Source: a virus. Taken from it: 64,000 nucleotides of DNA. The notes under the pieces were generated by a model. It saw only the letters and a list, made by a program, of their open reading frames with translations. It was not told the DNA's origin and searched no databases. The stretch covers positions 1 through 64,000 of IMG/VR virus record IMGVR_UViG_3300032163_000003. The stretch is one strand, 5' to 3'. Position numbers and translations under genes: made by a program. Numbering within the stretch: the stretch's first letter is position 1; each line of letters opens with the position of its first letter. Shown piece by piece: positions 16,426 through 43,008 of this stretch.

Positions 16426-16426
16426 T

Positions 16427-17077: not shown

Positions 17078-17091
17078 GGGAGTAAAAGACC

Positions 17092-19572
17092 TTGGCTGAG
17101 ACTACGCTTTCAAATCAAATCTTTCTTTCTAGAGATCAGACAAGACTTCAGATAATTGAATACTTAAAAACATATCTGGAGGTTGAGAATGTTGATCTTG
17201 CAAAGAGTTCCTTCCTGTCATTCATTGTAAATGTCTTATCCACTTTGACTTCTAACTTGCTTTTTTACGAAACATCTGTTTATAAAGAATTCTTTTTAAC
17301 TACTGCGCAACTGCCAGATTCTATTCTAAATCTTTCTAGTTTCTTAGGATACAGTTCTACTAACGCTACTTACGCAGAAACAGATTTGTTAATAAGAGTT
17401 CCTTTAAAGTTTACAGACAGCCACATAAGATTTGTTATCCCAAAAAACTTTAATTTCTACGCTGGAAATATTCAGTTTACAACTTACTATAGAACAGAAG
17501 TCACTGTCCTAAACAATAATAGCGCTACTGTTGTGATACAAGAAGAAGATAGAATCTATAACATTCCTGTAAATGTAGATACTACAGCGAATATGGACTT
17601 TTCGTTCCTTCTTCCTGTGAGACAGTATAAACAAACAACTCAAGAGTTCCAGGTAGACTCAGATCTAAAAGCATTCCAGTTCTTTACTATTGATGTTCCT
17701 ATTAAAGGAAAAGTTCAATCTTTAATCGTATCTGTTAGAGATCCCGGAGGAACAGAAGACAAGATCTATAAACAGTTTAGTAGTCTTTACTTGATGTCAT
17801 CTACTGACTACGGTTATGTTTCTAGAAAGACAGCAAAAGGTAGAAGGCTATTCTTTGGAAACGGTCTCATTGGTGTTCAGCCTCTACCAGGATCCGCAGT
17901 AACAGTCCTAATAAATGAGACAGAAGGTTTAGGAGGGAATGTTATTGCAGGTTCACTGAAACGAGGAGACAGAATCTATTACACACCTTCAACATCCCTT
18001 CAAACAAAAATTATAGAATATACAGTAAACAACCCAAGTGGTGCTACTGGAGGAACAGACGAAGAAGACTTAGAAGAAACAAGAAGTAATTCAATCATTA
18101 GTCTAACAGCTTTAAATAGACTTGTGTCGGAACTAGATTACAAAAACGCAAACTATATTGTTCCATTCTCAGCAATGGCGTTAAATCCAATTGCCGTGTT
18201 AAAAAGATCAGATGTCAAAACAAATGAAATTCAACTATATATGCCTCTGGTTTATAATGATTCGTTAGTTCCTACAAGAAACGAAAAAATTTCAGTTCCT
18301 TATGGAACAACTTTCCTTCCAAGAGGAACAGTTATTACAGATTCAGTTCTGATGGAATACATAACACTATTTGATATTACTCTCGACTATATCAATAGTG
18401 TCGCAAACTTTCACTACATAATGTACAAGATAAATCAAACTCTCACTTTAGTAAGTAGTTATGGATCATCTTACGTTATGTCAGCGGGTGAAGTTAATAT
18501 CTCAAAATCTGGATTAACAGCTACTTTTGAAGTTCCATACTTTACAACAGAAATAGACTATACGACAACAACTTGTATAATGGAATTCTTAGAAACAGAC
18601 GAAACATTTACAATGACAAACGATACAATAAATAAAAAATTTATTTATACATTCACAGACTACACAAACATTCCAGAAGGAGACTTAACACTATTATTTA
18701 CAATTAGTCATATTTCAAATCAAGTAGCGACTTACTCATCTACTGTAGTTTTCAGAAAAGATTTAAAAGATATAATGATGTCAAATGTTAAGATTGATTC
18801 AACAAGCGCAATTATTTTTGACATACCAGTGGTCGAAAAAAGTTATTACAATATGGTAGACAAGCAAGAATTTGAGTCCTATGTTCTGCAGAATATGATG
18901 GTAGGTATGGAAACATATCGATATAGGATGCTTACGGATTTCACAAATGTTAAGTTTGTTAATACCTACGGACAAATGCAGAACATGAAATATAATAAGG
19001 TCACCAAACCTTCGGTGAAAGATATTAGAAACGATCCGCCTTCTAGTCCAAGTTTGGGCGATAGATATATTGTCGGAGAAACTTCTAGTATAGAATGGAT
19101 GGGACAAAAAAATAACATTGCGCAACTATCAGATACTACTTCTAACATTTGGACATTCTTTGAACCAAAGACTGACGAAACTATATTTGTAGTTTCATAC
19201 AATGATAAGTATCTATTTACTGGGCAGAGTTGGGTTCTTCCTAGATTTACTTGTCCACTTCAGATAAAAGCAGAAGTCTTTAAAAAAGAGACATTTATTG
19301 GATCTGATACGGAACTAACTGCGAAAATTAAAAATGCTCTTGTGCAAGTATTTAGACCAAAGTTTGGACCTAACGCAGCAATTTATAGATCTCAAATTAT
19401 CAGAGTAGTGCAGAGTATCGAGGGTGTAGACCACTGTCAACTTATCTTTCCAACATCTGACGTTTTCTTTAACTTTGACATTATGACAGATTTAACTCAA
19501 GAACAATTACTTGAATTCTCTCCCGAGTATGTATACTTTACAATTACAGATATTAGTTTAAAGATTATTTAA
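17092..19572 (+). CDS. Baseplate wedge subunit (gp6/J-like) with DUF2793-like insert
   Basis: EFFLTTAQLPDSI...LGY, LFFGNGLIGVQP, GLGGNV, ATGGTDEE, NRLVSELDY; PPSSPSLGDRYIVG. Confidence 0.85.
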   Translation: MAETTLSNQIFLSRDQTRLQIIEYLKTYLEVENVDLAKSSFLSFIVNVLSTLTSNLLFYETSVYKEFFLTTAQLPDSILNLSSFLGYSSTNATYAETDLLIRVPLKFTDSHIRFVIPKNFNFYAGNIQFTTYYRTEVTVLNNNSATVVIQEEDRIYNIPVNVDTTANMDFSFLLPVRQYKQTTQEFQVDSDLKAFQFFTIDVPIKGKVQSLIVSVRDPGGTEDKIYKQFSSLYLMSSTDYGYVSRKTAKGRRLFFGNGLIGVQPLPGSAVTVLINETEGLGGNVIAGSLKRGDRIYYTPSTSLQTKIIEYTVNNPSGATGGTDEEDLEETRSNSIISLTALNRLVSELDYKNANYIVPFSAMALNPIAVLKRSDVKTNEIQLYMPLVYNDSLVPTRNEKISVPYGTTFLPRGTVITDSVLMEYITLFDITLDYINSVANFHYIMYKINQTLTLVSSYGSSYVMSAGEVNISKSGLTATFEVPYFTTEIDYTTTTCIMEFLETDETFTMTNDTINKKFIYTFTDYTNIPEGDLTLLFTISHISNQVATYSSTVVFRKDLKDIMMSNVKIDSTSAIIFDIPVVEKSYYNMVDKQEFESYVLQNMMVGMETYRYRMLTDFTNVKFVNTYGQMQNMKYNKVTKPSVKDIRNDPPSSPSLGDRYIVGETSSIEWMGQKNNIAQLSDTTSNIWTFFEPKTDETIFVVSYNDKYLFTGQSWVLPRFTCPLQIKAEVFKKETFIGSDTELTAKIKNALVQVFRPKFGPNAAIYRSQIIRVVQSIEGVDHCQLIFPTSDVFFNFDIMTDLTQEQLLEFSPEYVYFTITDISLKII

Positions 19573-19582
19573 GGAAATCGAA

Positions 19583-20326
19583 ATGAAATTATGTGAATGT
19601 GGGTGTGGTCAAGAAGTAAAAAAAGAAAAAAATAGATTTATTAGTGGGCATAATCGAAAAGGAACAAAACAATCTAATTTTCAAAAACAAAGAGTTTCAG
19701 AGTCTAACAAAGGAAAGAAAAAAGAAAAGGCAGTCAAAGTCAGTAATAAAAAGTTGCTTTGTAACTATGGGTGTGGACAAGAAGTCAAATTCCAATTTAA
19801 GAATGAAAAATATTGCTGTAATGACAATGTTTCAAAATGTTTGAATATTTCAGAAAGAATTAGAAAAAAAATTAAAGGAAGAAAACAAAGCAAAGAAAGT
19901 ATAGAAAAAAGGTCAAACAAAGGGAAAAAGATTCATAGTAAAAAACATAAAGAAGAATTAAGTCTTTGGATGAAAGAAAATTATAGTTATATACACAAAT
20001 TTATTAAAAAAGTTTCTTCTGGAGAACTCAAACTTAGAGAAATAGTTAAAATTTTATATCCAGCATCAGAACACACACATAGAATTCTTAATTATGATAT
20101 AGATATTACTATTCCTGAATGTAAAATTGCTATCGAATATGATGGGTGGTATCATTTTGATACAGAAGGACATAAAGAATATCATAAGAAGAGACAACAA
20201 GAAATCGAAGAAGAAGAAGGATGGAAGTTCTTAAGATATAATATTTTTCAGAAGTTTCCAACAAAAGAACAAGTTAACGAAGATATTTTAAAATTGCTTG
20301 GAGATAAAAATCATGAAAGCTTTTAG
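19583..20326 (+). mobile_element. Free-standing endonuclease (CxCGCG zinc modules + NUMOD3 + DUF559/Vsr-like domain)
   Basis: MKLCECGCG, FISGHN, YDID...IAIEYDGWYH...GWKFLR. Confidence 0.75.
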
Positions 20327-20585
20327 TTTCTACCAACTACTAGAAAAACTAGATAAAGAATTAGAACAGATAAACCTCCAACCTTATAAAGCTGGTATGT
20401 TTACACCAGCAGAAGATGAAGAAGATGAAAATATGGAAGAGATGGCTGCTCCAGGTTGGGAAGGTTCAGTTAAGAAAATGAAAAAACACAAAGATATTAC
20501 AAATCCTTGGGCGTTGTCCTGGTTTATGAAGAAACAAGGTGCTCATCCACATTATACAAAAAGTGGCAAAAAGAAAGACGAATAA
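20313..20585 (+). CDS. FSFY-leader family protein
   Basis: MKAFSFYQLLEKLD; GGAG RBS; payload APGWEGSVKKMKKH...NPWALSW. Confidence 0.65.
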   Translation: MKAFSFYQLLEKLDKELEQINLQPYKAGMFTPAEDEEDENMEEMAAPGWEGSVKKMKKHKDITNPWALSWFMKKQGAHPHYTKSGKKKDE

Positions 20586-21376
20586 TGAAATCTACTCTTA
20601 ATGACATAGAATCTTTCTACGACAAACTTCTGAATGTTTGTAAGGAAAAGGATTTCTCTGTTAAAACATTAGGAAAAGTTGGAAAAAAATATCCATATCC
20701 AATTTACTTTGTAGATAGAGATGTTCGAATAGGACCAAAGATTTTAGTTTCATCCGGGTTTCACGGGAACGAGCCCGCTGGACCTTGGAGTATTATTTCT
20801 TTCTTAACGAATCTAGATTTAAACTTTATTTCTGGTGTTGATGTTTCTTTTCTTCCACTAGTAAATCCAACCGGGTTCGTAAACAATATAAGAGAAAATG
20901 AAGAAGGGTTGGATTCCAACAGGGGATATATGATTCCGGAGAATAGAGTCGATCTTCTTAAACCTCTAACCAAAGAAGGAAAGATCTTAAAAGATCATGA
21001 AGACTTATTAGCTGGTTCTTCTAAAGATGGACTTATTTGCTTACATGAAGCTCCAGTAATGCAAGAAACGTTTTTTGTTTATGGGTATGAAAACTCTAGT
21101 AAATCAGGCGAATTCACAAAACTATTTAGAGACATTGAATTAAAATACTTTAAGCCTTATCCTGATGGGTTAACAAGAAGAGGACTTACAACTAAAGAAG
21201 GAATAATTCTTCACAATTATGATGGAGGATTTCAAGATTGGCTTTTTAGAGAAAAAAGAATAGAACAAGCAATAGTTACAGAAACTCCTTCAAATAACCA
21301 ACCATTTAATTACAGGTTAGAAGTAAACGTAAAACTAATAGAAACATTTATAAACTACTTTAAGGAAAAAGTTTAA
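20585..21376 (+). CDS. M14-family zinc carboxypeptidase/succinylglutamate desuccinylase-like
   Basis: GFHGNEPAG, PLVNPTG, DSNR, LHE, TETP. Confidence 0.85.
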   Translation: MKSTLNDIESFYDKLLNVCKEKDFSVKTLGKVGKKYPYPIYFVDRDVRIGPKILVSSGFHGNEPAGPWSIISFLTNLDLNFISGVDVSFLPLVNPTGFVNNIRENEEGLDSNRGYMIPENRVDLLKPLTKEGKILKDHEDLLAGSSKDGLICLHEAPVMQETFFVYGYENSSKSGEFTKLFRDIELKYFKPYPDGLTRRGLTTKEGIILHNYDGGFQDWLFREKRIEQAIVTETPSNNQPFNYRLEVNVKLIETFINYFKEKV

Positions 21377-21384
21377 CAAATGCT

Positions 21385-22509
21385 ATGGAAGAACTTCTTA
21401 AGATTGCAAAGCCAGACTTTCCAAAACTAAGCAAAATTATACGTCACATTGCTGGTATTCATTTATCTAACCTTTCAGAACCATGCTATTTTCCAGATCA
21501 TAAAGTCTATTACTTTGAGTTTCTAAATGCACTAACTTTGACAGACCAAGATGTTAAACAATGGATCAAATACTTCTGGAAAGGGATGCCTCAAGCGAAA
21601 GCTGGAATTCAAACAAGAACAACTCCAATGCTTCTAGCATTTCTTATGTGGTTGTTCTTAAAAGAGAAAAATCAACTTTCTTACGAATCTACTATGATAT
21701 TCTTTACTGAAGTAATGTATGCTAATTCGATGCAAGGATCATTTCCAAAGTTTTGTAATATAGATGTTTTCAGGTATACATTAGACCATTTAGCAAAAAC
21801 ACATCTTTTTGTTCGAGAAAAAACTATCTCGGGTGCTATTTTTCACCTTTCCAAAGAAATGATGAAGAAACATACAGAGACTATAAGAAATGTAGATAAA
21901 TTAAGAATAAGTATGTTTATGCAAGAATTAAGAACTAGAATAAATCAAAGCGTTTGGAGTTTTGCTGAACAATACTATATCAACGCTGAAGAAGGGAAAA
22001 AATACACAACTCCGTGGGAAACAGAGGAAGGTAAAGGAGAAGCAGTAGCTCCTGCTGTAGAAAATGTGGAAAGGATTGCTACTGAAATTGCTCGAAGGAT
22101 CACAATTTATGGTGAGATCAACCCTCAAAATTTGGAAACTGCTCAGAAATTGACCAAGATTTCAGGCACTTTTGCTGCCGACATTGCGAAACAAGTATCT
22201 ATACCAGAACACAAAGAAGATGTCAAATTAATTATAGAACTGTTCTTGAGAGAGTTAAGAAGTGTAAAACAAATTTGCGGTAGAGACTTCTTTGGGATGG
22301 TAACAAGTCTTCTTTCAATTAAAAGAACTACTAGACAAGTTTATTTTAAGAAGGAAGTAACATCTTTGCTTCTTAAGGTTCTTAGACAAAGTAAACAAGA
22401 AAAAAAGTTTTTGGGACTTACTAGACAAACTCAATTTAGTGCTATCACATTCCTGTCTCTATACATAATGTTATTTGCTAGACAAACATTATGCCCAGAA
22501 GCAAAGTAA
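21385..22509 (+). CDS. Hypothetical all-helical protein
   Basis: 374-aa ORF at end of operon; no motif recognised. Confidence 0.55.
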   Translation: MEELLKIAKPDFPKLSKIIRHIAGIHLSNLSEPCYFPDHKVYYFEFLNALTLTDQDVKQWIKYFWKGMPQAKAGIQTRTTPMLLAFLMWLFLKEKNQLSYESTMIFFTEVMYANSMQGSFPKFCNIDVFRYTLDHLAKTHLFVREKTISGAIFHLSKEMMKKHTETIRNVDKLRISMFMQELRTRINQSVWSFAEQYYINAEEGKKYTTPWETEEGKGEAVAPAVENVERIATEIARRITIYGEINPQNLETAQKLTKISGTFAADIAKQVSIPEHKEDVKLIIELFLRELRSVKQICGRDFFGMVTSLLSIKRTTRQVYFKKEVTSLLLKVLRQSKQEKKFLGLTRQTQFSAITFLSLYIMLFARQTLCPEAK

Positions 22510-22552
22510 AAAAGAGTCCGGAACTATACAACTGTTCCGGACTCTTTTTTTA
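22508..22552. terminator. Bidirectional intrinsic terminator
   Basis: AAAAAAGAGTCCGGAAC-loop-GTTCCGGACTCTTTTTT between convergent genes. Confidence 0.85.
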
Positions 22553-22951
22553 ATTCCAAATTCCGCCAGGGTTTTCAAAGTTTAGAGGGTCTACTGGTTT
22601 TTTCCCCATGTGCGCCAATATTTCCTTTCCCATCGAACAATTCGCGCAGTCTCCATCACAATCTTCTTTCTCGGACTTTGTGGTTGGACGATCAAATTTT
22701 GTCCATAGAAAAGCCACAACCCATTTAGCGTCTTCTGGCGAATCCGTAATGATTTCTCTCGAAAGAAGCTCATCTCTGAATTCCTTGTTAATTATAAAAA
22801 ACGGATTTTGGGTTGCATCAAAGGGATTCCATTTCTCTCTTGGTCCTTTTTCTAAACCCTTCCAGAAAGTTTCTAACTTCTCACTAAACTTTAATTCTCT
22901 CCATACTTGTTTCGCTGCCATAAAAAACTTCAACCTCTTCTCAAAACTCAT
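22550..22951 (-). CDS. Hypothetical protein with its own class A promoter
   Basis: AGGAGG RBS; CDGDCANC motif. Confidence 0.6.
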   Translation of the reverse strand: MSFEKRLKFFMAAKQVWRELKFSEKLETFWKGLEKGPREKWNPFDATQNPFFIINKEFRDELLSREIITDSPEDAKWVVAFLWTKFDRPTTKSEKEDCDGDCANCSMGKEILAHMGKKPVDPLNFENPGGIWN

Positions 22952-23026
22952 ACTTCCTCCTTTTAGTAATTGAAATAAAATAATCTTTCCTATCTAGTAA
23001 GTAATATATATATAGAAGATCAACGT

Positions 23027-23067
23027 AAAAAAGAGTCCAGAACTAAAAAAGAAATTCTGGACTCTTA
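23027..23067 (-). terminator. Intrinsic terminator, sequence-related to 22508
   Basis: AAAAAAGAGTCCAGAA...TTCTGGACTCTT. Confidence 0.7.
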
Positions 23068-23076
23068 AATTTACTT

Positions 23077-23622
23077 TTATGTTTCCGCTCTTACAGGTGT
23101 ACTCACAACATGTTTCTGACTAGAAGCTGCTTTAATCTGAGCTAACCTTTGTTGTCCTGTTTTTCTCAAAACTTTTTGAGTAAAAGGTTTGTCCCCAATT
23201 TTTGCTGCTGCTATCCTTTTCTGAACCCACGGCGGTTGAGGTCTATCTTTAGTTAAATAATTTTTAACACCTTGCCAGTTTATCTCTTGCAATTCTGAGT
23301 CTTGTACATAAGTTAAGTACGCTTCAATTAACTCTGCTTCTTTAAGATGTTTCTTTTTCTTCTTGGTTCCAATTGTAGCAGTAAAGAACCCACTACCGTC
23401 TGGAAGTCTTACCACTCCAGATTTTGTCTTGGTTACTATTCCTTCTTTAACTTCTTCTGGTTCTTCTAACCTCTGCATCATCTCACCACACTTTGGACAG
23501 GAGTAATGCTGACAAGGAACACCTATGTGATGAACAGATTCAAATCCACATTTAGGACATTTGCATTCCGAATATACAACATCCAGATTTTGTTCTAAAA
23601 CTAAAGGAACCCACGATTTCAT
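23077..23622 (-). CDS. Modular hypothetical protein (zinc ribbon + LPDGSGFF module)
   Basis: CKCPKCG...CPKCG; several LxE sites. Confidence 0.55.
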   Translation of the reverse strand: MKSWVPLVLEQNLDVVYSECKCPKCGFESVHHIGVPCQHYSCPKCGEMMQRLEEPEEVKEGIVTKTKSGVVRLPDGSGFFTATIGTKKKKKHLKEAELIEAYLTYVQDSELQEINWQGVKNYLTKDRPQPPWVQKRIAAAKIGDKPFTQKVLRKTGQQRLAQIKAASSQKHVVSTPVRAET

Positions 23623-23691
23623 TTTATATCTCCTATTTAAAATATAATACAATTTATTTTAATATTGGTATTTGCTGTTTTGGATTTTGTT

Positions 23692-24090: not shown

Positions 24091-24176
24091 ATTATTCTCC
24101 TTCTCTTTTTGTTCTTACGATGACATTATCAAACCATGAGTTTTTGCACAACGCATCCTAAATAATTGCCTTTTGT

Positions 24177-29842: not shown

Positions 29843-30550
29843 TTACTTCTCTTTCTCGATTTTTGTGAATGTACCAAATCTTTTAACTGTATCAGCGAAT
29901 CCATACTTTACAGCTTCATCTGCATCAAGCCACAATTCTTTCTTTTTAATCTTTTCGTTTAACTCTTGTTTAGTAATTTTACTATGCATTATAATGTAAT
30001 CGTTAACTTTATCTTGGATCTTTCTCATGATCTTAGCTTCTTCTTCCTTATCTGCTGGTGTTTCAATAGCAAAGAACTTAAACTGCCAAAACTCATGAAA
30101 CATGATCATTGACCATTCATCAAGGTATCTATAACCCGGATTCCCTGAAATTAAAATCAATAAACCAGCACTCGCAATTAAACCACGTCCTCGAATTTCT
30201 ATAATCTTACCTGTAGACTGTTGTTCTTTGAAAATAGAGATAATACCCATAGCATCAAATAGACTTCCACCAGAGGTAAGTAAATCTATAACTACAACCT
30301 TATAGCTAATACTCTTTAAAGAAAGAAAAACATCTCTTATATTATTAAAGTCTATGTATCGAATAGACATGTAAATAGTATCTCCATATTTAGATACACC
30401 TTCTGGAAGTATATTATCTGCTGTAAGTTTACCCTTAGCATCTGCACTATATCCTTCTCTTATAGAAAATCCAAAGACAAGGCAACTAATTAAGACTAGT
30501 ATAACTACTATTAAATTTAAACGTTTCATTGTTTGTTCCTTTTTCCTCAA
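29843..30550 (-). CDS. ClpP-like serine protease with N-terminal signal/TM segment
   Basis: TSGGSLFDAMGI, GLIASAG, MIMFH, WLDADEAVKYGFAD. Confidence 0.8.
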   Translation of the reverse strand: MRKKEQTMKRLNLIVVILVLISCLVFGFSIREGYSADAKGKLTADNILPEGVSKYGDTIYMSIRYIDFNNIRDVFLSLKSISYKVVVIDLLTSGGSLFDAMGIISIFKEQQSTGKIIEIRGRGLIASAGLLILISGNPGYRYLDEWSMIMFHEFWQFKFFAIETPADKEEEAKIMRKIQDKVNDYIIMHSKITKQELNEKIKKKELWLDADEAVKYGFADTVKRFGTFTKIEKEK

Positions 30551-31024: not shown

Positions 31025-33199
31025 TTAAATGTATTTGTTTTCTATAGTGGCTAGACTATTTTCATGAGCAACTTTTATTCCATTTAACCCACGATTATAA
31101 GTATTAATGGTGGCTTCATATTGTTCTTTAGTCATACCACCTGAATTGTATAGATTAGTAGTCTTCTGAATACCAGTATTAAGTACTTGAACACCACTTG
31201 TATATTTTTGATTCTCTCCTGCTATTGCTGAGCTTCTTGCTTGCATTTTTTCTTGACTTGCTGCTACTGTTGGTTCTACTTGTGCTTTCACAGTCTCCTC
31301 TGCTGTAGTTGGGAATGTGTCTGCTTTCTTAACTTCTTCTACTGTTGGTTTGGGTGTTATTGTTGTTTTAATACTTTGTCCTAAATCCTTAACTGTACCA
31401 GTAGCTTTTGTTATACTTTCAGATAATTGTTTAGCTTTAGAACTTGCTCCATCTATTACTGACGTTGCTATCTTAGTTCCTGCTGCATAGACTGCTGTTC
31501 CTGTTGCAGTTAACTTACTTGATACTCCACCCCAGAACGAATCTGATTGTCCAGGAGCTTTACCTCCTTCAGGTAATTCTTTAGGTACATTCTTAGAGTC
31601 TCCTGGTACAGCGCCATATTCATCTTGTATATATGCACTATCTTCTGGGACTGCTGCCATAGCCTCTGCTGCGTCTATCATCTGATCTCTACTTGCTCCT
31701 GGAGTCAGTCCTGCTACTTGAGTTGCTTGTGTTTCTGGTCTCACTCCTTCATAGTACTGTGCTGCTTCTAGTTGATCTTGTAACTTTTTATCTTGTAGAG
31801 CTTTCTGTTCTGCGTTCTGTCCCGCATAGTCTTCCATTTCTTGTGTCTGTTTAGCTTGATCTAACTTAGATGCTTCTAGTTCCTTATCTCTTCCTGCTAC
31901 AATTCTAGCTTCTCTATCTACTTCACCCGGAGCGGTAGCAGCATCTGCTTCTTTCTTTTTAAGATATGCAGCATCTGCTTCATCATCTGACATTACTCTT
32001 GGAGACGGATTCTGGTACGCAGTAGGATCAACAGTACTGGTTGGTGTTCCTGGTGCTGTAACAATATCTTCGTCTGAAGGTATTCCTCTAGATGTTGAAG
32101 TTACATTTGGTGCTCCTGGTTGGGGGCCATACATTTTTGGCGCTACAGTTCTTTCTCCCAACTGGTCTATATAGTCTCCAACTGATGGAACACTGGTAGA
32201 GGTCCTCCGTCCCAACATAACAGAATGCAGCGGTTGGAACTCTAATCTGACATCAATCATGCTAGGTCTATTATTCCATGACATTTGGTTTTCGGGACCA
32301 GGTTGTACTGTGATCCCTATGCATGATGCCATCTTCCACTTAAACAGTCCGGGACTCCAAATTTGATGAATATAAGGCCAACGATATAGATTATCTTGGT
32401 CAGATAGTGGTGCTCCAAGCATTAAAAGTACAGTTAATGGTTCAATGATGTACTTATTGTAACATACATCACTAGCCTGATTTGGGTTATATAACCTTAC
32501 CGGAATTGAGACCGGACCAGAGAATCCACTACCCATCCACACTTTAGGGAAATCAACTCTAGCACCAGTTAACATTTGACCTACTACACTTAACCCAGTA
32601 CTGACCATGTTTCTTACACCTTGTTGTGTATTAGTTGGTAATTTATCTATTGCTTTTTCACCAAGACCTGCTATTCCTTTTATCAAATCGCCAATTTTTC
32701 CGCTTGCCCATTCTCCTGCTCCTTTTCCCCTTTGTCCGGCAACCGCTCCCCCCAACTGTCCTGGGAGTTTTTGTGCTAAGCTTCCAAGACTAGTAGAACC
32801 TGACATTTGGGCTAACTGTCCAAGTAGAGGTCCTCCAACTGATGTAATACTCTCTAAGAAACTAGCACCATAATCATTAGATAACTGAATGCCTGGAATA
32901 GCTTCAGGAAGGAATGCAATAGGAATAGCATTAGAGTCTGTTTTTAACAAAATATCATAATCATTCATTAACATATCTTGAAATTCACCTAGTTTATCAT
33001 CAAAATGAAAAACATCTAAACCAGCAACAAATTGTCCTTGACCAGGTATAAGATACATAAGGGGAATGGATCCCTTTAAAACTTCATTAGAGAAATACAG
33101 TTCAACAGGAGGAAACCCAATTGGTAATCTAGTTGCTGTACTCTCTCCGGAAGATAGTGGATATCCCGGGGTTTTTGCTGCTTTAGCTGGATCTGCCAT
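31025..33199 (-). CDS. Baseplate/tail-tube-initiator-like protein with long low-complexity C-terminus
   Basis: FPKVWMGS...RLYNP...RPSMIDVRLEF tube-like pattern; Ala/Thr/Gln-rich tail. Confidence 0.5.
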   Translation of the reverse strand: MADPAKAAKTPGYPLSSGESTATRLPIGFPPVELYFSNEVLKGSIPLMYLIPGQGQFVAGLDVFHFDDKLGEFQDMLMNDYDILLKTDSNAIPIAFLPEAIPGIQLSNDYGASFLESITSVGGPLLGQLAQMSGSTSLGSLAQKLPGQLGGAVAGQRGKGAGEWASGKIGDLIKGIAGLGEKAIDKLPTNTQQGVRNMVSTGLSVVGQMLTGARVDFPKVWMGSGFSGPVSIPVRLYNPNQASDVCYNKYIIEPLTVLLMLGAPLSDQDNLYRWPYIHQIWSPGLFKWKMASCIGITVQPGPENQMSWNNRPSMIDVRLEFQPLHSVMLGRRTSTSVPSVGDYIDQLGERTVAPKMYGPQPGAPNVTSTSRGIPSDEDIVTAPGTPTSTVDPTAYQNPSPRVMSDDEADAAYLKKKEADAATAPGEVDREARIVAGRDKELEASKLDQAKQTQEMEDYAGQNAEQKALQDKKLQDQLEAAQYYEGVRPETQATQVAGLTPGASRDQMIDAAEAMAAVPEDSAYIQDEYGAVPGDSKNVPKELPEGGKAPGQSDSFWGGVSSKLTATGTAVYAAGTKIATSVIDGASSKAKQLSESITKATGTVKDLGQSIKTTITPKPTVEEVKKADTFPTTAEETVKAQVEPTVAASQEKMQARSSAIAGENQKYTSGVQVLNTGIQKTTNLYNSGGMTKEQYEATINTYNRGLNGIKVAHENSLATIENKYI

Positions 33200-33472: not shown

Positions 33473-33729
33473 TCAGTTTGAAACTGTTTCTTTTAACTTC
33501 GTTATTTCATCTCTAGCAGTAGATATCTCGTCATCCCAATGTCTCCGACAACTTTTTAAATCTGAATACTCATGCCCCCATTCTTTACCTTGTTTTACAA
33601 GTCTTGGACAATTCTTCTTTGCAATCTCACATTTCTTTATAAACCCTGTAAACGCTGAATCCGTTCTTTAGGGTCAGACTTGAAAAAGCCTTCTGTAAGT
33701 CCCTCTACTAGTCTATAAAATGAGAACAT
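33473..33729 (-). CDS. FSFY-leader family protein with -1 frameshift
   Basis: MFSFYRLVEGLTE...QGL* (30 aa); G GGT TTA heptamer at 33646-33640; -1 frame continues IKKCEIAKKNC...C...SN*. Confidence 0.55.
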
Positions 33730-33732
33730 ATC

Positions 33733-34233
33733 TTATTCCTCTGTCTTAGCTGCTTTCTGGACCTTTTGTCTTTGTAATGCAAGGACTCTAATTGTTCTAA
33801 AAAAATTCTTCTTTGTTACTGGATCTTTAATTTCTGTTCCTGATTTTGCTAATCGTTTTATTGATGGACGTAAACTGGGATCTAGATAAAATTCGTCTAA
33901 TTGATCTGTTCTTTTTAATCCTTCTACTTTAGCTGCTTGCTGCGCAGCTGCTTTATTCTTTTGTGCTACCTCTCTAGAAGCTCTATATACTCCTGATAAA
34001 AAAGACGAAGCTCGTTTGCCACTAAGGGGGGTTGATCCTTTGAATACTTCTTTAACTCTCCCTGGATCTCGCATTCTAGCTCTAGCTTCCCATGACCTCT
34101 TTGTTTCTTTTTTGGCTTTTCTTAATGGAAAAAATACACTGGGTTTAAGTTTAGTCATTGTACTTATACCTTTTTCCCATTTGTATTCATTTAACTGATC
34201 TAACGTTTCTACTAGTCTATAGAATGAAAACAT
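33733..34233 (-). CDS. FSFY-leader family protein
   Basis: MFSFYRLVETLDQLNE; basic payload. Confidence 0.7.
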   Translation of the reverse strand: MFSFYRLVETLDQLNEYKWEKGISTMTKLKPSVFFPLRKAKKETKRSWEARARMRDPGRVKEVFKGSTPLSGKRASSFLSGVYRASREVAQKNKAAAQQAAKVEGLKRTDQLDEFYLDPSLRPSIKRLAKSGTEIKDPVTKKNFFRTIRVLALQRQKVQKAAKTEE

Positions 34234-34235
34234 GA

Positions 34236-34451
34236 TTATGTCTCCTTACTTGATTTCATATGTGAATAATCTTTTAAGTATCTTGGATCTTTCCACATGC
34301 AAGTATCACAAACTATTATCTCACCAGAATTTGCATAGTTACCCCAGGGTTCACCAGTTGGCCCAACTGCATAAAATCCGGCCGTGGCTGTTTCGGTTCT
34401 AATTCCATCTATCATTTTTCCACATCGGTCGCACTTGACGGTTACTTTCAT
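34236..34451 (-). CDS. Small zinc-finger protein
   Basis: CDRC...CDTC. Confidence 0.55.
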   Translation of the reverse strand: MKVTVKCDRCGKMIDGIRTETATAGFYAVGPTGEPWGNYANSGEIIVCDTCMWKDPRYLKDYSHMKSSKET

Positions 34452-34693
34452 TAGAGTCTATTCCTTCTTCTATCATTACATATTATACCAGTTGAACTAA
34501 CATTAATATCTATATTAATAACTTTACCAAATAATCTTTCTAACCAGTCTAACTTTCCGTTTCCACCACATACATGACATAAATAGGGAATTTTTAATTC
34601 CCCGGTAAATTCGGTTCCTATCCCTTCACACTTTGGACATATGATGTCGGTCTTTTGGAGGTCTTCTTTTTGAACTCCAAGTTTACCGTTCAT
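34451..34693 (-). CDS. DnaJ-like zinc finger/DW family protein
   Basis: CPKCEGIG...CHVCGGNGKLDWLERLFG. Confidence 0.6.
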   Translation of the reverse strand: MNGKLGVQKEDLQKTDIICPKCEGIGTEFTGELKIPYLCHVCGGNGKLDWLERLFGKVINIDINVSSTGIICNDRRRNRL

Positions 34694-34914
34694 TCTTCTA
34701 CTGGTCCTGCTAAATTCTTTTCTGCAGGTTCAGGTTCTGGCTCTTTAGTCTTTACTAGAGATAGTATTTTCTTCTTCCCTGGATTTTCTGGAGGATTGAT
34801 AGCTCCCGCTGCTGAAACTCCACTACTTGTTGGAAGTCCAGCAACTCCTGCGTCCCCTCCTGCGTCTTCATATAGTTTACCTAACGCTTCTACTAGTCTA
34901 TAAAATGAAAACAT
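34690..34914 (-). CDS. FSFY-leader family protein
   Basis: MFSFYRLVEALGKLYED; Gly/Ala/Pro payload. Confidence 0.7.
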   Translation of the reverse strand: MFSFYRLVEALGKLYEDAGGDAGVAGLPTSSGVSAAGAINPPENPGKKKILSLVKTKEPEPEPAEKNLAGPVEE

Positions 34915-34942
34915 ATCTTAATCTCCAATTGTTTTGTCTATG

Positions 34943-35335
34943 TTAAAATTTTAGAAGTGGGCCAGTCTTTATCTGTATGTCTGGTACTATGTTAACTAAA
35001 GTAGCAACTAAATATCTTGTGCTCTTGGTTCGTTCAGAGTTTTCCATCAGAATGGTACCTTCTAGTATTTTAAATTCGGATCCTTTGAAACTAAGAAGTC
35101 CCATGCTAAAACTTGTAACGTCATTTTTGTTTTCGTCTGTTAGCGTTACGACAAGATTTCCCTTTATGGGAATGTCAGTTTCATTCTGTATAGTTACTTT
35201 CCATTCTAATATACATCCGTCAGAACTACATGCAGCAGATAGTACTGCTGGAGTTATACTTACTTGACCATGTACTGCTGGAGCTATGAGTAATAGACTT
35301 AAGACTATTAACAATACTGCTAAGAATTTTTTCAT
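34943..35335 (-). CDS. Secreted/membrane Ig-like beta protein
   Basis: Signal peptide MKKFLAVLLIVLSLLLIAPAVHG. Confidence 0.55.
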   Translation of the reverse strand: MKKFLAVLLIVLSLLLIAPAVHGQVSITPAVLSAACSSDGCILEWKVTIQNETDIPIKGNLVVTLTDENKNDVTSFSMGLLSFKGSEFKILEGTILMENSERTKSTRYLVATLVNIVPDIQIKTGPLLKF

Positions 35336-35346
35336 TTATATCTCCT

Positions 35347-35568
35347 CTATACTTCTGCTTCGTCTTTCTTCTCTACATAGCAAGGACAATTATGTTGCCT
35401 ATTTTTCTCGTTATTAAAATAGACACATCTACCAGCTTCTGAGACTCCTGCTTGTTTACACCCCGGAATACATAAGTTATCTTTCTTTTTCCATTTGGAA
35501 CAGACCTTACCATTTCCACAATAATCTTCTTGTTCTAATACTTCAAGTAATTTATAGAATGAAAACAT
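35347..35568 (-). CDS. FSFY-leader family protein, Cys-rich payload
   Basis: MFSFYKLLEVLEQED + seven Cys. Confidence 0.7.
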   Translation of the reverse strand: MFSFYKLLEVLEQEDYCGNGKVCSKWKKKDNLCIPGCKQAGVSEAGRCVYFNNEKNRQHNCPCYVEKKDEAEV

Positions 35569-35794
35569 GAGATTTAATCTCCTTTATTTATCACACTCTT
35601 TGCAATCTAACTCACTAGCGCCGATACCTGTAGTTCTGAATTCTTCTATGTGTCCACACTCAAGAGTTGTTTCTACTATGTGATATATTGTATGATGAAC
35701 TTCATTGCTTAGATAACCCGAACATCCCTGTGGGTCTGTCCATGTTCTATCTGTATGTTTATAAGATATAACTTTTCTAATCATTATTTTATTT

Positions 35795-36064
35795 CTATTC
35801 CTCTTCTGCTGGTTCCGCTTGCATTTTAAATCTTGACATTGCGGAAGATACTTTTTGTTTAGCATGTTGCGCTGCTTTGAAAGCGTTTACATATAATTGT
35901 TTATCTAGAGGAACTTTTGATTTCATATATGCTTTTCTACGTACTATCGCTGTTGCTATCTTATCTTTCCATGAAGAAAGAGATGGATTGTTTGAGCTTA
36001 AATTTCGATTCCATACCGCTTCTAGTAATTCTAGTTCTTCTATTAATTGGTAGAAACTAAACAT
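35795..36064 (-). CDS. FSFY-leader family protein
   Basis: MFSFYQLIEELELLEA. Confidence 0.7.
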   Translation of the reverse strand: MFSFYQLIEELELLEAVWNRNLSSNNPSLSSWKDKIATAIVRRKAYMKSKVPLDKQLYVNAFKAAQHAKQKVSSAMSRFKMQAEPAEEE

Positions 36065-36357
36065 TACTTTCTATCTCCTTACATGCCCTACATTTAAGTC
36101 CTGGAATTACGCACCTTTTGAAAGTAATTCCTAAAATGAAGTCTAGTAAACAATATGTTATACCTAGATAGATTAGAATTTCCATTTTCTTAGATCTCCT
36201 ATGTGAACGTGAACCTACGGTGCTTGCGATCCTGCTTTAAAGATAATACACTTACCTACAATCTAGTCCACACCCACATGAACCAGCCCGAGTGAAAATC
36301 CTTAAAAGGATTTTCTTTATCCACACTTTTAGTTTAACAAAAAATACTTTCATATTT

Positions 36358-36897
36358 TTATTTCCGTATCTTTGAACCTTTATATTTTTCCGACGTTAAC
36401 TCTCTATATCTTTCTCTTAGTTCTAGAATTTTTTCCTCTGATGTGTCTACACAGTTCTGTCTGAGGAAAGCGCGTTCTTTACTAATTTTTGTATAACAAT
36501 TCTGAATTCGTTTTCTTAGAAGTCCTATTTGTACTTCTATTGCTTGCAACTTTAGTTTCTTTCTACATTCAAATCCTTCTACTCCTGTTTTAGAAAAACA
36601 TGTTTCTTTTTCTTTAGCTTCGAAATGAGCAGCTACCGCTCCTATAATAGCAGCAATTGTTATAATTCCTAACACTCCTAATGTACTTACTTTTTGTTTT
36701 TTCTTTCCTTCTAAAACATATGGAATAAAAGTTTCTTCAACTTCTTCGGGGTTTTCCGATTGTAGAATCATAGGTTCCTTATCTTTAGACTGTAGTATCG
36801 GTGCATTCGGAGCTATCTTAACTATTTTTGGATCTCTAACTTGTGGAGCTTCAGTTCTATCTAACTCAATAAGTTTTATAATTCTACTTATTCTCAT
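36358..36897 (-). CDS. Hypothetical protein, hydrophobic helix + four Cys
   Basis: C-terminus parallels 15889-16425. Confidence 0.55.
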   Translation of the reverse strand: MRISRIIKLIELDRTEAPQVRDPKIVKIAPNAPILQSKDKEPMILQSENPEEVEETFIPYVLEGKKKQKVSTLGVLGIITIAAIIGAVAAHFEAKEKETCFSKTGVEGFECRKKLKLQAIEVQIGLLRKRIQNCYTKISKERAFLRQNCVDTSEEKILELRERYRELTSEKYKGSKIRK

Positions 36898-36898
36898 T

Positions 36899-37336
36899 CT
36901 ACTGTCCTCCGACAACACTTACTTGTGACTTTTCTTTAACTTTTCTTGGGCTGCTCCACGGGGAAGTATTGATTATACCTTTTAGCTTATCTGACGCTAA
37001 AGTCTTTCCCGAGGAGTTTGGGGTTTTATCTCCCATATTGAATGAGTTTACGTTCTGAACTTCAGACACCTTCTTTTTCTTTGTTGCTTTATACGAATGC
37101 TGCATTATTGTAGCTTTTCGATTAAAACAATCGACCACGCATTTTTCCCACTCTTTTCTATCCAAGATACGAGAACACTCTGATTTACAAAACATCATCG
37201 CGTCACGTTCTTTCCCTTTTTTTATGAGATGACGTAATCCTAAAACACCAGCGATAGCTGCAATAGTTGGAGTAGCAAATAGTTCCTGCAGTTCTTGTTC
37301 TTCCAAATATTCTATTAATTGATAGAATGAAAACAT
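36899..37336 (-). CDS. FSFY-leader family protein
   Basis: Internal ATG at 37336: MFSFYQLIEYLEEQELQELFA; CKSEC...CVVDC. Confidence 0.7.
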   Translation of the reverse strand: MFSFYQLIEYLEEQELQELFATPTIAAIAGVLGLRHLIKKGKERDAMMFCKSECSRILDRKEWEKCVVDCFNRKATIMQHSYKATKKKKVSEVQNVNSFNMGDKTPNSSGKTLASDKLKGIINTSPWSSPRKVKEKSQVSVVGGQ

Positions 37337-38474: not shown

Positions 38475-38837
38475 TCATTCATAATTTGATTTAACCCTCC
38501 CAGTTCCTGAAACTGATTTAGACTGGTTCTCCCAGTTAGATCTGTTCATTCTAAATGTTTTAAAGTCACCAAACTTTTTATTTAACTTAACTATTTCTTT
38601 AGTCTTTCCTGAAAATCTTGGAGATTGTTCTTTACCTATTGTCGAAGGAAGTGGACGAATAGGACTTGCAGATTCACTTTCAACTGCGTCTCCAGTTTGT
38701 AATCTATTTGATCTTTCTGAATCAACATTTGACATAAACTTATTTAGTTTTAATTGCGCGCCAACTTTCTTCTTTCCGCTTAGATAGACCTCGTATTCAT
38801 CAAGTCTAGTAATTCTTAAGAACTGTTCCTTTGTCAT
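38475..38837 (-). CDS. Hypothetical protein
   Basis: Class B motif directly upstream of MTKEQF; RLDEY motif. Confidence 0.5.
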   Translation of the reverse strand: MTKEQFLRITRLDEYEVYLSGKKKVGAQLKLNKFMSNVDSERSNRLQTGDAVESESASPIRPLPSTIGKEQSPRFSGKTKEIVKLNKKFGDFKTFRMNRSNWENQSKSVSGTGRVKSNYE

Positions 38838-38871
38838 ATATAATTTGTTCCGTTTTGTGACAAGATCTGAT

Positions 38872-41800
38872 TTAAATATTACCACTTAAAATTGCAGCGA
38901 TTTCAGGATCAAAAGATCCTTGTCCGCTTTGTCTTCCACCCCCACCGCCCTGTTGATTGCTTTGCATATTTGTGATTACGTTAGAGTTAGAAATTATCGC
39001 TGCGTTTACTCCTTTGAGACCTTTATCTATAGCTCCAACCATTGGGTTCATTGCTTTACTCATTCCATTGATTCCCATCATAGCATTTTCTACTTCTCCA
39101 TCAATCAAGTCTTTTCTTTTGTAAGGAACATTGAATTGTTTAGGATCTCCAACTTGTGGTTTCATTTGCAAATGCCATGGCTCATTTCCCATTGGCTGAT
39201 AAAATCCATACTTCTCCATCAGACCTTCTTTTTTCAAACCATAAGCATCTCCACTATTAATGTCTAACGCCAATCCTTTTCCGTGAGGAGATTTTCCTGG
39301 AGGAGCAGCGTATGGGTTAGTTTTGTACAACTCAGCTTGTTTTGCTGGAGACCTGTAGGCGGAGTTTAATTGAATCTCTTTTCCTGTTCCTTTCTTATAT
39401 TCTTCTGCCATCAAAGAGAAGTTTTTCCAAATTGGTTCTTGAACTCCACTTATATCAACATCAGGCATTTTCTTGATTCCAACTAAAGATCCAAGTCGTT
39501 CCCCAATCGTAGTAGCTCCAGAAACTATAGATTTTCCTATATCTGTTATTCCTACTTTTTCAGCTACTCTTTGAGCAAATCCAGTAGCTCCAGTTGCTGC
39601 TTGACCAATAGCCCCAGCGGCTTTTCCTAGTAAACTTTCTTTTTGATATTCTAGTTGGATTATTTTTCCTACGTCTGCGAAACCCTCTTTAATCGCTTCT
39701 CGAATAGTAATAGCTAAGTGAGATTCACTGCTTGCTGATTTACCAACACCATCCCCTACTTCTTTTATTTGACCATACTTTCTTGGTCCATATCCCGGAT
39801 CTCCAACTCCTCCCATTTGCATATATTTTTCATATTCCGCTTGCCCAGCACCAGGAGTAGTTTCTGGAGCTTTTTCCGGTCCACCTGTAACTTTCTCAAC
39901 AGCCCATCCAATCGCTTTTACAAGAGGATTCTTTTTAACTAAATCAACTATCCAATCTTTTGCTTTAACTGCTAAGTCCCACATAAAGTCAACTGGATAT
40001 AGAACCAAATCTTTTATCGCTATAGCCTTTTCTTTAACATAACCAACTACAGAATCTATAGATTTCGAAATTGTTTTACTAGCAGATTCAACTATATCAA
40101 AAACTAAGTCTCCGAGCCATCCAGGTCCTTTATATTTTCCTCCTGAAATCCACTCACCAAACATTCCAAATAATTCACCAACAAGAGTTTTTTCCCCTCG
40201 AAAAGCTTGTATCATTTCATAAACACCAAACGCAGCTGCTCCTACTGCAGCTCCCATTGGTAACATTCTTAATAAAGCACCACCCGCTTTACCCAGTCCT
40301 TTTAGCCCCAACCCACCAAGGGCTTTTAAGTATCTTAGAGGATTTAACTTTGTCATAAGACTCTTTACCCAACCACCGATTGCTCCAACAGTCATCAGCA
40401 AGTAGTCAGATATACTTTTAGTTCCTTTTTTAAGTATGTCTATAATTTTAGCTGTATCCTCTTTAATTGTTGCTACTATCTTTGAGGTAGGTTTTGCGAT
40501 ACCTATTATTTGTTTAGTTTGGTCTTTTGAAAGCTTTCCAAAATATCTTGAAATAAATCTAGCTGCTTTTCCTGATATTTCGGAAATAATTATCTTAGTT
40601 TCTAACTCCTTTTTTTCTCCTTCTTTGACTCCCATTCCAGCTTTTGCTGCTGCAAAAGGAATCTTGTAGTCTTTATAAGTCTTATCTTCTTTTACTTTAC
40701 CATGTTTTCCACCAAACAAAATTCTTTTTATGTTTTTTGGTCTTAAAGCTCCTAATCCTCCAACACCTCCAGCTTCCACTTCTCCAGCTCCAACCCCAGC
40801 GAAACCTAACATTGTTTCCCACGCTTTTTGAACTATGTCAGAAAAGAATCCACCACCCATTCCACCAACGGTAACTTTCTCTCTCTTCTTTTTAGCAGCT
40901 TTTTGACTAGGCGATTCCCAACCACCTTCTTCTGGAGCACCACCAAAACCAAGCATTCTTTTTATCTTATCAAACATTCCTTCTTCTTTTTTACCTGCCG
41001 GTTTCCACCAACGCTTGACTCCTCTAGCTCCAAGTCTTATTTTTTGAATTCCGGTTGCTTCCATCTTTTCTCTTGGTTCTCTAAATCGTTCCTGTTTTAT
41101 ATCAAGACCCATTCCAATAGCTTTTAGAGAAGAAAGTATGTGATCATATTTATGCATGAAGTCAGCATAAATCATTCCCAATGTAGTAGCAATATTTCCT
41201 AGAACGTTTGGACCTTTTGGAACTTTAGCTTTGTATTTGCTTTGAGTAGAGAATAACCACTTTAAAGGTTTAGCCATCCAATCGCTAATTTTTATAAATG
41301 TTTTGAACATAGGGATTTCTTTAAACATATCCCGTATCATGCCATATATTCCCCCCGGTTCTCCTTCCACATTCGGTTCAGAAATCGTTGTTAATTGTTC
41401 TCGAATTGCTCCTAACTCAGTCGTTACTGGTTTAATTGACCGTTTAAACATTAGGTTAAATTCTCTAAACAATTTTTGAGAAGGAACTACAACTTCTGCT
41501 GCATGCACTTGAGCTAGTCCTGTCTTTGCTACATATCCGCCTTTCTGTAGTTTTGGAATTCTTGTGTTTTCTCTAGCAGATTGACCAGCTCTAAACATTG
41601 ACTTAAACTTAGATCCAACCACACTAGCGGCGTCACTAAGTTTATTTTTAATTGCGTCACTAAATTTTCTGAAAACACCAGTTTCCATGAATTTAGCGGC
41701 GAAGTATCCAAATATAGGAGTAGCTCGACTCAGCGCCATTGCGACGGTATTTGGCGCGCTGATATTTAATTCTCTTTGTAAAATGTTTTTATAATTTTGG

Positions 41801-42132
41801 AGTGTTTCTTTTGTGATGGAAGATATCTTGACAACGCCTCTTCCCATTATGTCAAACACGTATCCAACTCTATTTAAGATACCAGAAACCGACTTTTCTA
41901 TTTCTCTAATTCCTTCAGTTCCAGCCATTCTTTCTACTTTAAGTCTTCTAGCTTTTTCTGTAATTCTTCTAATATCATTTCTAGCTCCGCCAAGTTCTTT
42001 TTGAAAGTCATCGTTATTTCTTTCTATAAAATTCGAAACAGCATTGATCCCTTTAGCTCGTTGGTTTCCTTCTGCCGTTGCTTCTCTTTCATTCTGACTC
42101 ATCATTCGTCTAATGTCTCGGTCATTAGCCAT
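38872..42132 (-). CDS. Tape-measure-like tail protein with C-terminal M15 (VanY-like) peptidoglycan peptidase
   Basis: Long helical Gly/Ala-rich body; NSAYRS...SPHGKGLALDI...EPWH. Confidence 0.8.
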   Translation of the reverse strand: MANDRDIRRMMSQNEREATAEGNQRAKGINAVSNFIERNNDDFQKELGGARNDIRRITEKARRLKVERMAGTEGIREIEKSVSGILNRVGYVFDIMGRGVVKISSITKETLQNYKNILQRELNISAPNTVAMALSRATPIFGYFAAKFMETGVFRKFSDAIKNKLSDAASVVGSKFKSMFRAGQSARENTRIPKLQKGGYVAKTGLAQVHAAEVVVPSQKLFREFNLMFKRSIKPVTTELGAIREQLTTISEPNVEGEPGGIYGMIRDMFKEIPMFKTFIKISDWMAKPLKWLFSTQSKYKAKVPKGPNVLGNIATTLGMIYADFMHKYDHILSSLKAIGMGLDIKQERFREPREKMEATGIQKIRLGARGVKRWWKPAGKKEEGMFDKIKRMLGFGGAPEEGGWESPSQKAAKKKREKVTVGGMGGGFFSDIVQKAWETMLGFAGVGAGEVEAGGVGGLGALRPKNIKRILFGGKHGKVKEDKTYKDYKIPFAAAKAGMGVKEGEKKELETKIIISEISGKAARFISRYFGKLSKDQTKQIIGIAKPTSKIVATIKEDTAKIIDILKKGTKSISDYLLMTVGAIGGWVKSLMTKLNPLRYLKALGGLGLKGLGKAGGALLRMLPMGAAVGAAAFGVYEMIQAFRGEKTLVGELFGMFGEWISGGKYKGPGWLGDLVFDIVESASKTISKSIDSVVGYVKEKAIAIKDLVLYPVDFMWDLAVKAKDWIVDLVKKNPLVKAIGWAVEKVTGGPEKAPETTPGAGQAEYEKYMQMGGVGDPGYGPRKYGQIKEVGDGVGKSASSESHLAITIREAIKEGFADVGKIIQLEYQKESLLGKAAGAIGQAATGATGFAQRVAEKVGITDIGKSIVSGATTIGERLGSLVGIKKMPDVDISGVQEPIWKNFSLMAEEYKKGTGKEIQLNSAYRSPAKQAELYKTNPYAAPPGKSPHGKGLALDINSGDAYGLKKEGLMEKYGFYQPMGNEPWHLQMKPQVGDPKQFNVPYKRKDLIDGEVENAMMGINGMSKAMNPMVGAIDKGLKGVNAAIISNSNVITNMQSNQQGGGGGRQSGQGSFDPEIAAILSGNI

Positions 42133-42135
42133 TTT

Positions 42136-43008
42136 TTACTTTCCTTCTACAAATTTTCTTATTTTATTTTCTACTTTTTCCATATCTTTTAGCTCATTTT
42201 CCCAAATTACTAAAGTCTTATACCCAAACTTTGCAAATATTTTCTTTCTTTCTTCTGGATCTTCTCCTTGATGATAATAATTTCCAAAATGTTCAATCAG
42301 TAACTTCTTACCATTGATACAAGTAAAGTCAGGATTTTTACCATTAATTAAGAAACTAAAATCTCCTGTATATTTCCATTCGTTGGGGTAAAACTTATTT
42401 AGAACATTCAAAATTTTAACTTCACATTTGTTTGGTCTAAGGTCTCGTGCTTCTTTTTGTTTTTGTTGATATTCTGGATCTTTCCAGTTTTCTAGTTGTT
42501 TTTCTGCCATTCTTTTAACACCTTTATTATTCTCTTTAGTTCTTCCCTTCTTTTTTTCTGCTCCTTTTCTACGTCCTTCTTCAGTTACAAAACTAGCTGC
42601 ATAAGTTGCTCCACCACTTTTCATTCGTTTCGATCGTTTTTTTATTTGTATTCTTTTACCTTCTTCGGTTACACAACTATTCATATAAGATGCATGACCA
42701 TTTTTCATTCTTATTCTTGTTTGTGATCTTTCCTCTTCTGTTACATCTCGAAAGTTTTTTATACCTTTATTCCACGGGATTTTTCCGAACATATGATTAT
42801 TCTCTCCTGTTATTTTTTCTGCCCCCTTTTTAACTCTCTCATCTGTTTCTTTTGTTAAATCTTTATTCCACGGAATTCTTCCTTTAAGATTTTCGCTATT
42901 TTTCTTTGAGACTTTTGGGCATTTCATAACATTTAAACTACAACACCATTTTTCGTTCTTGAATTGATATTTCGCTTCTTGACCACAACCATAATCACAT
43001 AATTTCAT
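42136..43008 (-). mobile_element. Free-standing endonuclease (CxxGCG + NUMOD3-like + Vsr-like)
   Basis: MKLCDYGCG, PWNK repeats, PDF...IEHFGNYYH...LVIWENE. Confidence 0.75.

Follow-up and report, generated by a model that had tools for sequence, protein, structure and literature searches.

Two nuclease genes of a large tailed phage, each situated directly upstream of an FSFY gene (one whose product starts with an FSFY-containing leader), probably encode ordinary free-standing homing endonucleases, the FSFY cargo being separate from them, found at the same permissive junctions and subject to passive hitch-hiking. The neighbors of this nuclease family, both along the record and at the loci of its homologues elsewhere, suggest that it colonizes gene junctions in general, neither carrying nor targeting the tag.

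The window here analyzed covers the initial 64 kb of an IMG/VR virus record of 110,069 bp, with a CheckV completeness of 35% and a GC content of 35%. A baseplate module, a large terminase, tRNA-repair enzymes and SbcCD-like genes are encoded in the record, and the phage is of jumbo type and heavily infested with endonucleases, HNH-type enzymes also being present. Megablast of positions 15000-24000 of the window against 50,697 phage records gave no match, and neither did the nuclease as tblastn query in the collection of known phage records. In addition, an RtcB-like tRNA ligase open reading frame (3964-6249, - strand, 761 aa) contains at residues 173-261 an HNH endonuclease segment that looks like an intein or an in-frame endonuclease insertion.

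Identity of the Nucleases

The products of H19583 (19583..20326, + strand) and H37820 (37820..38482, - strand) are paralogues with 43% identity over 244 columns (E 5e-54), so that the paralogy claimed in an earlier note on this DNA, and the existence of both open reading frames, are borne out. The start at 38458 assigned there to H37820 also stands, Met9 at that position being the likely true start. The description of the nuclease domains as nearly identical applies to a core motif of ~48 residues but not to the whole nuclease domain, with ~62% identity, a value not above those of other paralogue pairs (44% to 66%).

Both proteins pass the cut-off of 20.6 bits for Pfam DUF559, a Vsr-like PD-(D/E)xK domain (23.3 bits for H19583 and 27.2 for H37820), and they match PHROG 3339 (homing endonuclease) and PHROG 559/3339, respectively. 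A profile of 27 family members matches, over residues 24-97, the catalytic domain of I-Bth0305I (PDB 3r3p_A, E 8.1e-6), the enzyme that typifies the 'EDxHD' homing endonucleases (PMC3239194). The motif VD...IE[YF]DGWYHFD is present in both nucleases, D151 and E162 being invariant and D164 nearly so among 27 sequences, and by this conservation they are candidate counterparts of the Vsr catalytic residues. The N-terminal parts are made up of Cys fingers and GRTKEN-type repeats, with Pfam NUMOD3 in homologues. Indeed, the 77 database homologues mostly show a NUMOD3+DUF559+MTES_1575 build, and a relative has this N-terminal module fused to an HNH domain, a modularity typical of homing endonucleases. 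On sequence grounds, H19583 and H37820 belong with the Vsr-like 'EDxHD' homing endonucleases, as free-standing members with predicted homing activity.

Six paralogues are encoded in the 110-kb record, at 19583(+), 37820(-), 42136(-), 67564(-), 68612(-) and 107254(-), and four of them adjoin non-FSFY genes, such as those for SbcC and a tape-measure-like protein. The third copy within the window (42136..43008, - strand; phmmer E 1e-14, Pfam DUF559 23.7 bits) immediately precedes the tape-measure-like gene, with no adjoining FSFY gene, and a homologue occupies the same junction in the relative G002. The copy at 107254 lies just upstream of the SbcC-like gene, a 202-aa open reading frame separating it from the SbcD-like gene. 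The sequences upstream of the six nuclease genes have nothing in common except ribosome-binding sites, giving no sign of a shared target half-site or terminal repeat.

The N-terminus of H19583 (encoded at 19583-19850) displays two tandem Cys fingers of differing type, CxCGCG..GHN, as in H37820 and H107254, and CxYGCG..CC..C, as in H42136 and H68612. As it combines both types, the paralogues appear to recombine with one another. A decayed copy was also observed in a related phage, where 4001-4216 of locus L009, between DNA polymerase and QueE genes, retains the last 69 nuclease codons only and no start codon.

Insertion Sites in Related Phages

The virion backbone of this phage recurs in two relatives, G001 with 95.7 kb and G002 with 23 kb, at 25-69% protein identity. 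Upstream of H19583 lies a gp6-like baseplate wedge gene (17092..19572, + strand; PHROG 219/6, E 1e-25 for PHROG 219) that shares 50-53% identity with its homologues at 38 IMG/VR loci; 29 of these also contain a homologue of the conserved backbone gene at 21385..22509 (+ strand; homologues ~40% identical). An empty site after the gp6-like gene, which the earlier note had suggested looking for, is indeed present in 25 of the 29 loci, the 21385-22509 homologue following within ~135 nt or less. Positions 19573-21384 are thus a 1.8-kb insertion (insertion A) flanked on the left by the gp6-like gene and on the right by the backbone gene. It consists of the nuclease, the FSFY gene F20313 (20313..20585, + strand) and, as third gene, an M14/AstE-AspA-like zinc peptidase (20585..21376, + strand; PF24827 27.5 bits, Peptidase_M14 23.4, PHROG 4722), for which no homologue was detected in G001 and which, as query for related loci, retrieved no relative.

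The other four gp6 junctions are occupied by GIY-YIG-type (L165/L166 and L183) or HNH_3 (L169) endonucleases devoid of cargo, which indicates an endonuclease hot spot independent of the FSFY tag. This occupancy matches the description of cognate sites by Barth et al. (PMC10448857), according to which endonucleases belonging to quite distinct classes may be found at such a site. Some relatives also bear endonucleases at the g16406|gp6 junction, and homologues of the nuclease itself occur in relatives at the neighboring junctions g16406|gp6, terminase|g43022 and g43022|tape-measure.

H37820 lies in another region. The tape-measure-like virion protein encoded at 38872..42132 (- strand), with a C-terminal cell-wall hydrolase region (PHROG 13118, endolysin; PHROG 16823/15478, tape measure), has homologues in relatives, and in 13 related loci its gene adjoins within 0-23 nt the homologue of the conserved virion structural gene at 31025..33199 (- strand; PHROG 20401), whose product is 33% identical to its G001 homologue. 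Positions 33200-38871 are therefore regarded as insertion B. The nuclease is not at its edge, since it is preceded by ORF136 (38475..38885, - strand), also part of the insertion and with no homologue in G001. No endonuclease was found at the tape-measure|g31025 junction in any of the 13 loci. Finally, 22510-31024 constitutes insertion C, the largest of the three, in which no endonuclease of this family is present.

FSFY Genes and Their Leader

A six-frame scan of the 110-kb record retrieved exactly eight FSFY[QKR] starts, all within the window, of which seven make up an array on the minus strand (33637-37823) and the eighth is at 20313(+). As the earlier note had described, the latter is on the opposite strand, 13 kb off the cluster and directly after the gp6-like baseplate wedge gene, and the MKx prefix is confined to the two nuclease-adjacent genes, at 20313 (MKAFSFYQ) and 37823 (MKRFSFYQ). 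In F20313 the leader MKAFSFYQLLE is followed by a small basic payload (PGWEG..KKHKDITNPWAL). F37823 (37341..37823, - strand; MKRFSFYQFLGDLD...) has no L-x-E at the usual leader position, where FLG is found instead, L-K-E appearing further on; it also contains an internal K-Q-E-F-L..T-Q-L-D-E-Y motif, and a homologue search with it detected none. The six remaining genes (33637..37336, - strand; starts at 37336, 36064, 35568, 34914, 34233 and 33729) encode leaders of the form MFSFY[QKR]L[ILV]E and are interspersed with leaderless small genes.

The eight FSFY proteins have the leader alone in common, their payloads showing no mutual similarity by BLAST. A Shine-Dalgarno-like site precedes each start by 7-10 nt, and L-[ILV]-E is found in seven of the eight leaders, at residues 7-9 (9-11 in F20313). 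In T4, gp21 cuts after L/I-x-E, and the first 10 residues of IPIII suffice for head targeting (PMC9026906, PMC3012670). An orthologue of F20313 that is 81% identical and starts with MKPFSFYY is encoded on a 520-nt contig. No second FSFY phage was found with four degenerate leader patterns (TCN, AGY and MKx types scanned over IMG/VR, plus a short one applied to four related records), which gave only chance matches inside other genes or in non-coding frames. A function as RiPP-type leader peptide was considered and rejected, the leader having only ~10 residues and the payloads 60-150, mostly basic, and one payload being a head-associated domain.

Further features were observed around the array. 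The motif K-[QE]-[EQ]-F-L-x-x-T-x-L-D-E-[YF] recurs at the likely start of ORF136 (38790-38840), within F37823 (37490-37540) and within F34233 (33890-33915); it includes L-D-E, a possible protease site, and F37823 may thus hold two cargo modules in one chain. The last FSFY open reading frame (33637-33729) has just 30 codons and is followed by ~440 nt without an open reading frame before the 724-aa virion gene; 33200-33729 may be a decayed cargo gene or the site of an RNA or regulatory element. G001 has no FSFY genes, and four genes starting M..K.DF[VI]TNSS.TSF are found in it at 44-49 kb (L156); in another phage a gene of this type directly follows a nuclease homologue (L037/L129, ~4540).

The payload domain of F20313, its C-terminal 45 residues, is present in 202 IMG/VR contigs, in proteins of 56 to 1360 residues, with the consensus PGWEGTVKAMKKHKDIxNPWALAWxMKxKG and no Pfam family covering it. 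Glu-[VK]-[AS]-P stands immediately before it in every case, the Glu looking like a protease cut site. In the shortest of these proteins, the whole N-terminus is a 10-residue T4-like leader (for instance MISFKKYITE or MRSFKQYLNE), and longer ones begin with MKTLKQYIEE, MKTYKEIAEA or MKTFLQFIEN. The frequent occurrence of this domain behind T4-like leaders in other phages supports the FSFY leader as a capsid-tag variant. From its sequence, this leader is most readily taken for a lineage-specific form of the T4-type capsid-targeting sequence, with putative head loading. Upstream neighbors of the payload-domain genes elsewhere include T4-like portal and ClpP protease genes; an endonuclease domain was found in none of 44 such neighbors, and the search for endonucleases near these genes gave one weak match in 80 loci. 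The ClpP-family protease encoded at 29843..30550 (- strand; Pfam CLP_protease E 2e-16, PHROG head maturation protease families), located in the 8.5-kb insertion C that G001 and G002 lack, could be the head maturation protease that removes the FSFY leaders. PF03420 and PF07068 (gp21/Peptidase_S77 and gp23) had no match in this 35%-complete record, control genomes likewise giving none. Separately, the M14-like peptidase starts with MKSTLNDIESFYDKLL (20585-20650), which resembles the MKSLNDF-type leaders of payload-domain proteins and contains SFY..LL, and it might itself be head-targeted.

Nuclease Genes in Relation to Leader DNA

Homologues of the nuclease were located at 133 further loci, 53 from IMG/VR and 80 from metagenomes, and no FSFY-type start occurs anywhere in their ~730 kb. 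The genes downstream encode terminase, QueE, clamp loader, GTP cyclohydrolase, gp6-like or tape-measure-like proteins, and commonly overlap the nuclease stop. The proposals of the earlier note that the nuclease inserts beside leader-coding DNA, and that its subfamily might be enriched next to FSFY genes in relatives, are not supported by these figures, as four of the six paralogues adjoin other genes and none of the 133 homologue loci has an FSFY-type neighbor. The comparison is an indirect one, no leader-bearing phage having been found besides this one. A more specific version, in which the nuclease recognizes leader DNA and the adjacent leaders are cleavage-immune alleles by virtue of their MKx prefix, AGY serine codons and altered downstream residues, is considered highly improbable. 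It would fit the observations that the two adjacent leaders depart most from the consensus DNA ATGTTYTCATTYTAT and that H37820 lies within the cargo array, in which no sequence but the leader is repeated, but the gp6 junction draws other endonuclease classes in the absence of any leader, the same AGT codon is found in the 36064 leader, which has no nuclease, and the six unprotected leaders of the same genome would be self-targets.

At both loci the nuclease gene overlaps the FSFY start, as had been noted, H19583 by 14 nt with the ATG at 20313 and H37820 by 4 nt (ATGA) with that at 37823. Upon nucleotide alignment of the two junctions, the FSFY ATG lies almost equally far from where the nuclease domain ends (36 vs 37 nt, with a single 1-nt indel) and both leaders begin with ATGAAA; identity is only 57/75 over the last 75 nt of the nuclease domain and 22/36 between the leaders. 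Over those 75 nt H19583 is closest to H68612 (64/75), whose tail KLLEDKE is paralleled by its own KLLGDKN, and H37820 is closest to H107254 (62/75), both of the latter ending in the ATGA that starts the next gene (F37823 and SbcC, respectively). The leader DNA of F20313, in turn, is nearest to the nuclease-free 36064 leader (30/36, identical TTTAGTTTCTACCAA included). In the nuclease-domain tree H19583 and H37820 are not sisters, and each has closer kin in other metagenomes (76% and 71% identity). Forcing their sisterhood costs 18 log-likelihood units without formal rejection by the AU test (p 0.096), and the tree is poorly resolved, which is why the nucleotide comparison of the 3' ends carries more of the argument. 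Members of the nuclease family frequently show start/stop overlaps, of -3 to -22 nt, and ~20% of the genes here start with MK.

Taken together, the tree, the 3'-end and leader matches, the family-wide overlaps and the frequency of MK starts make a common nuclease-leader block unlikely, as far as sequence comparison can tell. A duplication in which the nuclease 3' end and an ATGAAAnnn-FSFYQ leader were copied between the cluster and the baseplate operon, a different payload following, appears correspondingly improbable, even though the restriction of the MKx prefix to these two leaders, the near-equal spacing, the use of AGY for Ser in both and the borderline AU test would all be expected from it. 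Thus, the earlier idea that nuclease and leader moved as a unit is not sustained, and neither is the capture of a new payload, that of F20313 being a widespread phage domain without endonuclease association elsewhere. The data suggest rather an incidental origin of the MKx prefix, from close, overlapping insertion of the nuclease, which would have supplied or displaced the start codon.

Origin of the Adjacency

The reading favored here, that of ordinary homing, can be outlined as follows. The nuclease family would have colonized many gene junctions in this phage lineage, each enzyme, with a putative DNA-binding N-terminal part of zinc-finger/NUMOD type and a C-terminal Vsr-like 'EDxHD' nuclease, cutting a nuclease-free relative near the junction (intron-less homing), after which repair would copy the nuclease gene and the intervening DNA up to the next common backbone gene. 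The FSFY genes would encode head-internal cargo proteins, with a ~10-residue leader that is a form of the T4 capsid-targeting sequence and that the head protease probably cuts off at L-x-E. Nuclease and cargo genes alike, as accessory DNA, would gather at shared permissive sites where conserved virion genes meet, so that two of the six nucleases come to lie directly before FSFY genes. The nuclease, F20313 and the M14-like peptidase (19573-21384) would then be inherited together by passive co-conversion, without the nuclease recognizing or carrying the tag.

Some observations count against ordinary homing. Each FSFY-bearing region has a nuclease directly before an FSFY gene, and the naive chance of at least two of six nucleases being so placed is ~0.03 (8 FSFY genes among ~172 genes), a value that is suggestive, not decisive. 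Since the tape-measure|g31025 junction is never occupied by an endonuclease in relatives, a backbone hot spot fails to explain the 37820 copy. The similar spacing, common ATGAAA and AU test described above point the same way. In view of that chance value and that junction, the readings with a causal link between nuclease and leader keep some weight but are unlikely in total, and a functional link in particular, the endonuclease either cutting leader DNA or traveling as a block of 3' end, start codon and leader, is improbable.

The nuclease could also have caused cargo to accumulate without any link to the tag, double-strand breaks at occupied junctions being mended by illegitimate or short-homology repair that recruits accessory genes, following the logic of homing endonuclease gene (HEG) islands. 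Such non-specific capture agrees with the compact, nuclease-led layout of insertion A, whose three genes are packed between the flanking ones with a 10-nt gap, a 14-nt overlap, a 1-nt overlap and an 8-nt gap, and mobilization of HEG-flanked cargo has been proposed (PMC10448857). It is rather improbable here, however, as insertion C, the largest, has no endonuclease of the family, the endonuclease-occupied junctions of four related loci are without cargo, no second flanking endonuclease is present, and no high-identity cassette copies were found in other phages.

Were the tag spread by homing, new tag sites would be seeded in virion operons and any downstream open reading frame would become injectable cargo, that is, a selfish element would drive the diversification of the phage's injected proteome, suggesting a route for loading chosen proteins into phage heads. 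The evidence favors the ordinary case, in which selfish nucleases and tagged cargo accumulate at the same virion-gene junctions, the gp6 junction being a clean natural example of one site with three different endonuclease classes. As by-products, the analysis provides sequence-level support for FSFY as a divergent T4-type capsid-targeting sequence and brings to light the widespread, unnamed small head-associated domain of F20313, always preceded by Glu.

Comparison with Known Systems

The arrangement resembles that of the free-standing HEGs of T4- and ICP1-type phages and of HEG islands (PMC10448857) in that the insertions are tight against essential or virion genes, their presence varies among relatives, one junction can receive different endonuclease classes, and co-conversion of adjacent DNA is expected. 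It differs from HEG islands (Barth et al. 2023) in that the cargo, made up of a small tagged protein and a peptidase, is accessory where theirs is an essential operon, and in that a single endonuclease stands on one side, the cargo not being bracketed. Moreover, no near-identical copy of the kind that HEG islands show between otherwise diverged phages was retrieved by megablast from 50,697 phage records, and no cargo was found in the relatives searched.

With I-Bth0305I the nucleases share the C-terminal Vsr-like nuclease domain, a bipartite build with an N-terminal DNA-binding part, and occurrence in phages and metagenomes. Unlike that enzyme, which is intron-encoded in recA, they are free-standing between genes, a condition also noted for members of the EDxHD family (PMC3239194); besides, their N-terminus consists of one or two Cys fingers and NUMOD3-like repeats, and six paralogues are found in 110 kb.

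Regarding the cargo, the FSFY proteins are comparable to T4 IPI, IPII and IPIII, which also have a common N-terminal leader of ~10 residues ending in L-x-E on unrelated, mostly basic small proteins, and whose genes are likewise clustered and hypervariable. They differ in the sequence of the leader, MFSFYQLIE, so far seen only in this phage and the 520-nt contig; moreover, a gp21-type protease and gp23 were not found in this 35%-complete fragment, a ClpP-type protease being present instead. Altogether, a known family gains new members in these nucleases, their arrangement being also of a known kind, with free-standing endonucleases and hitch-hiking neighbors at virion-gene junctions, and the FSFY leader adds a new sequence variant to what appears to be a known tagging system.
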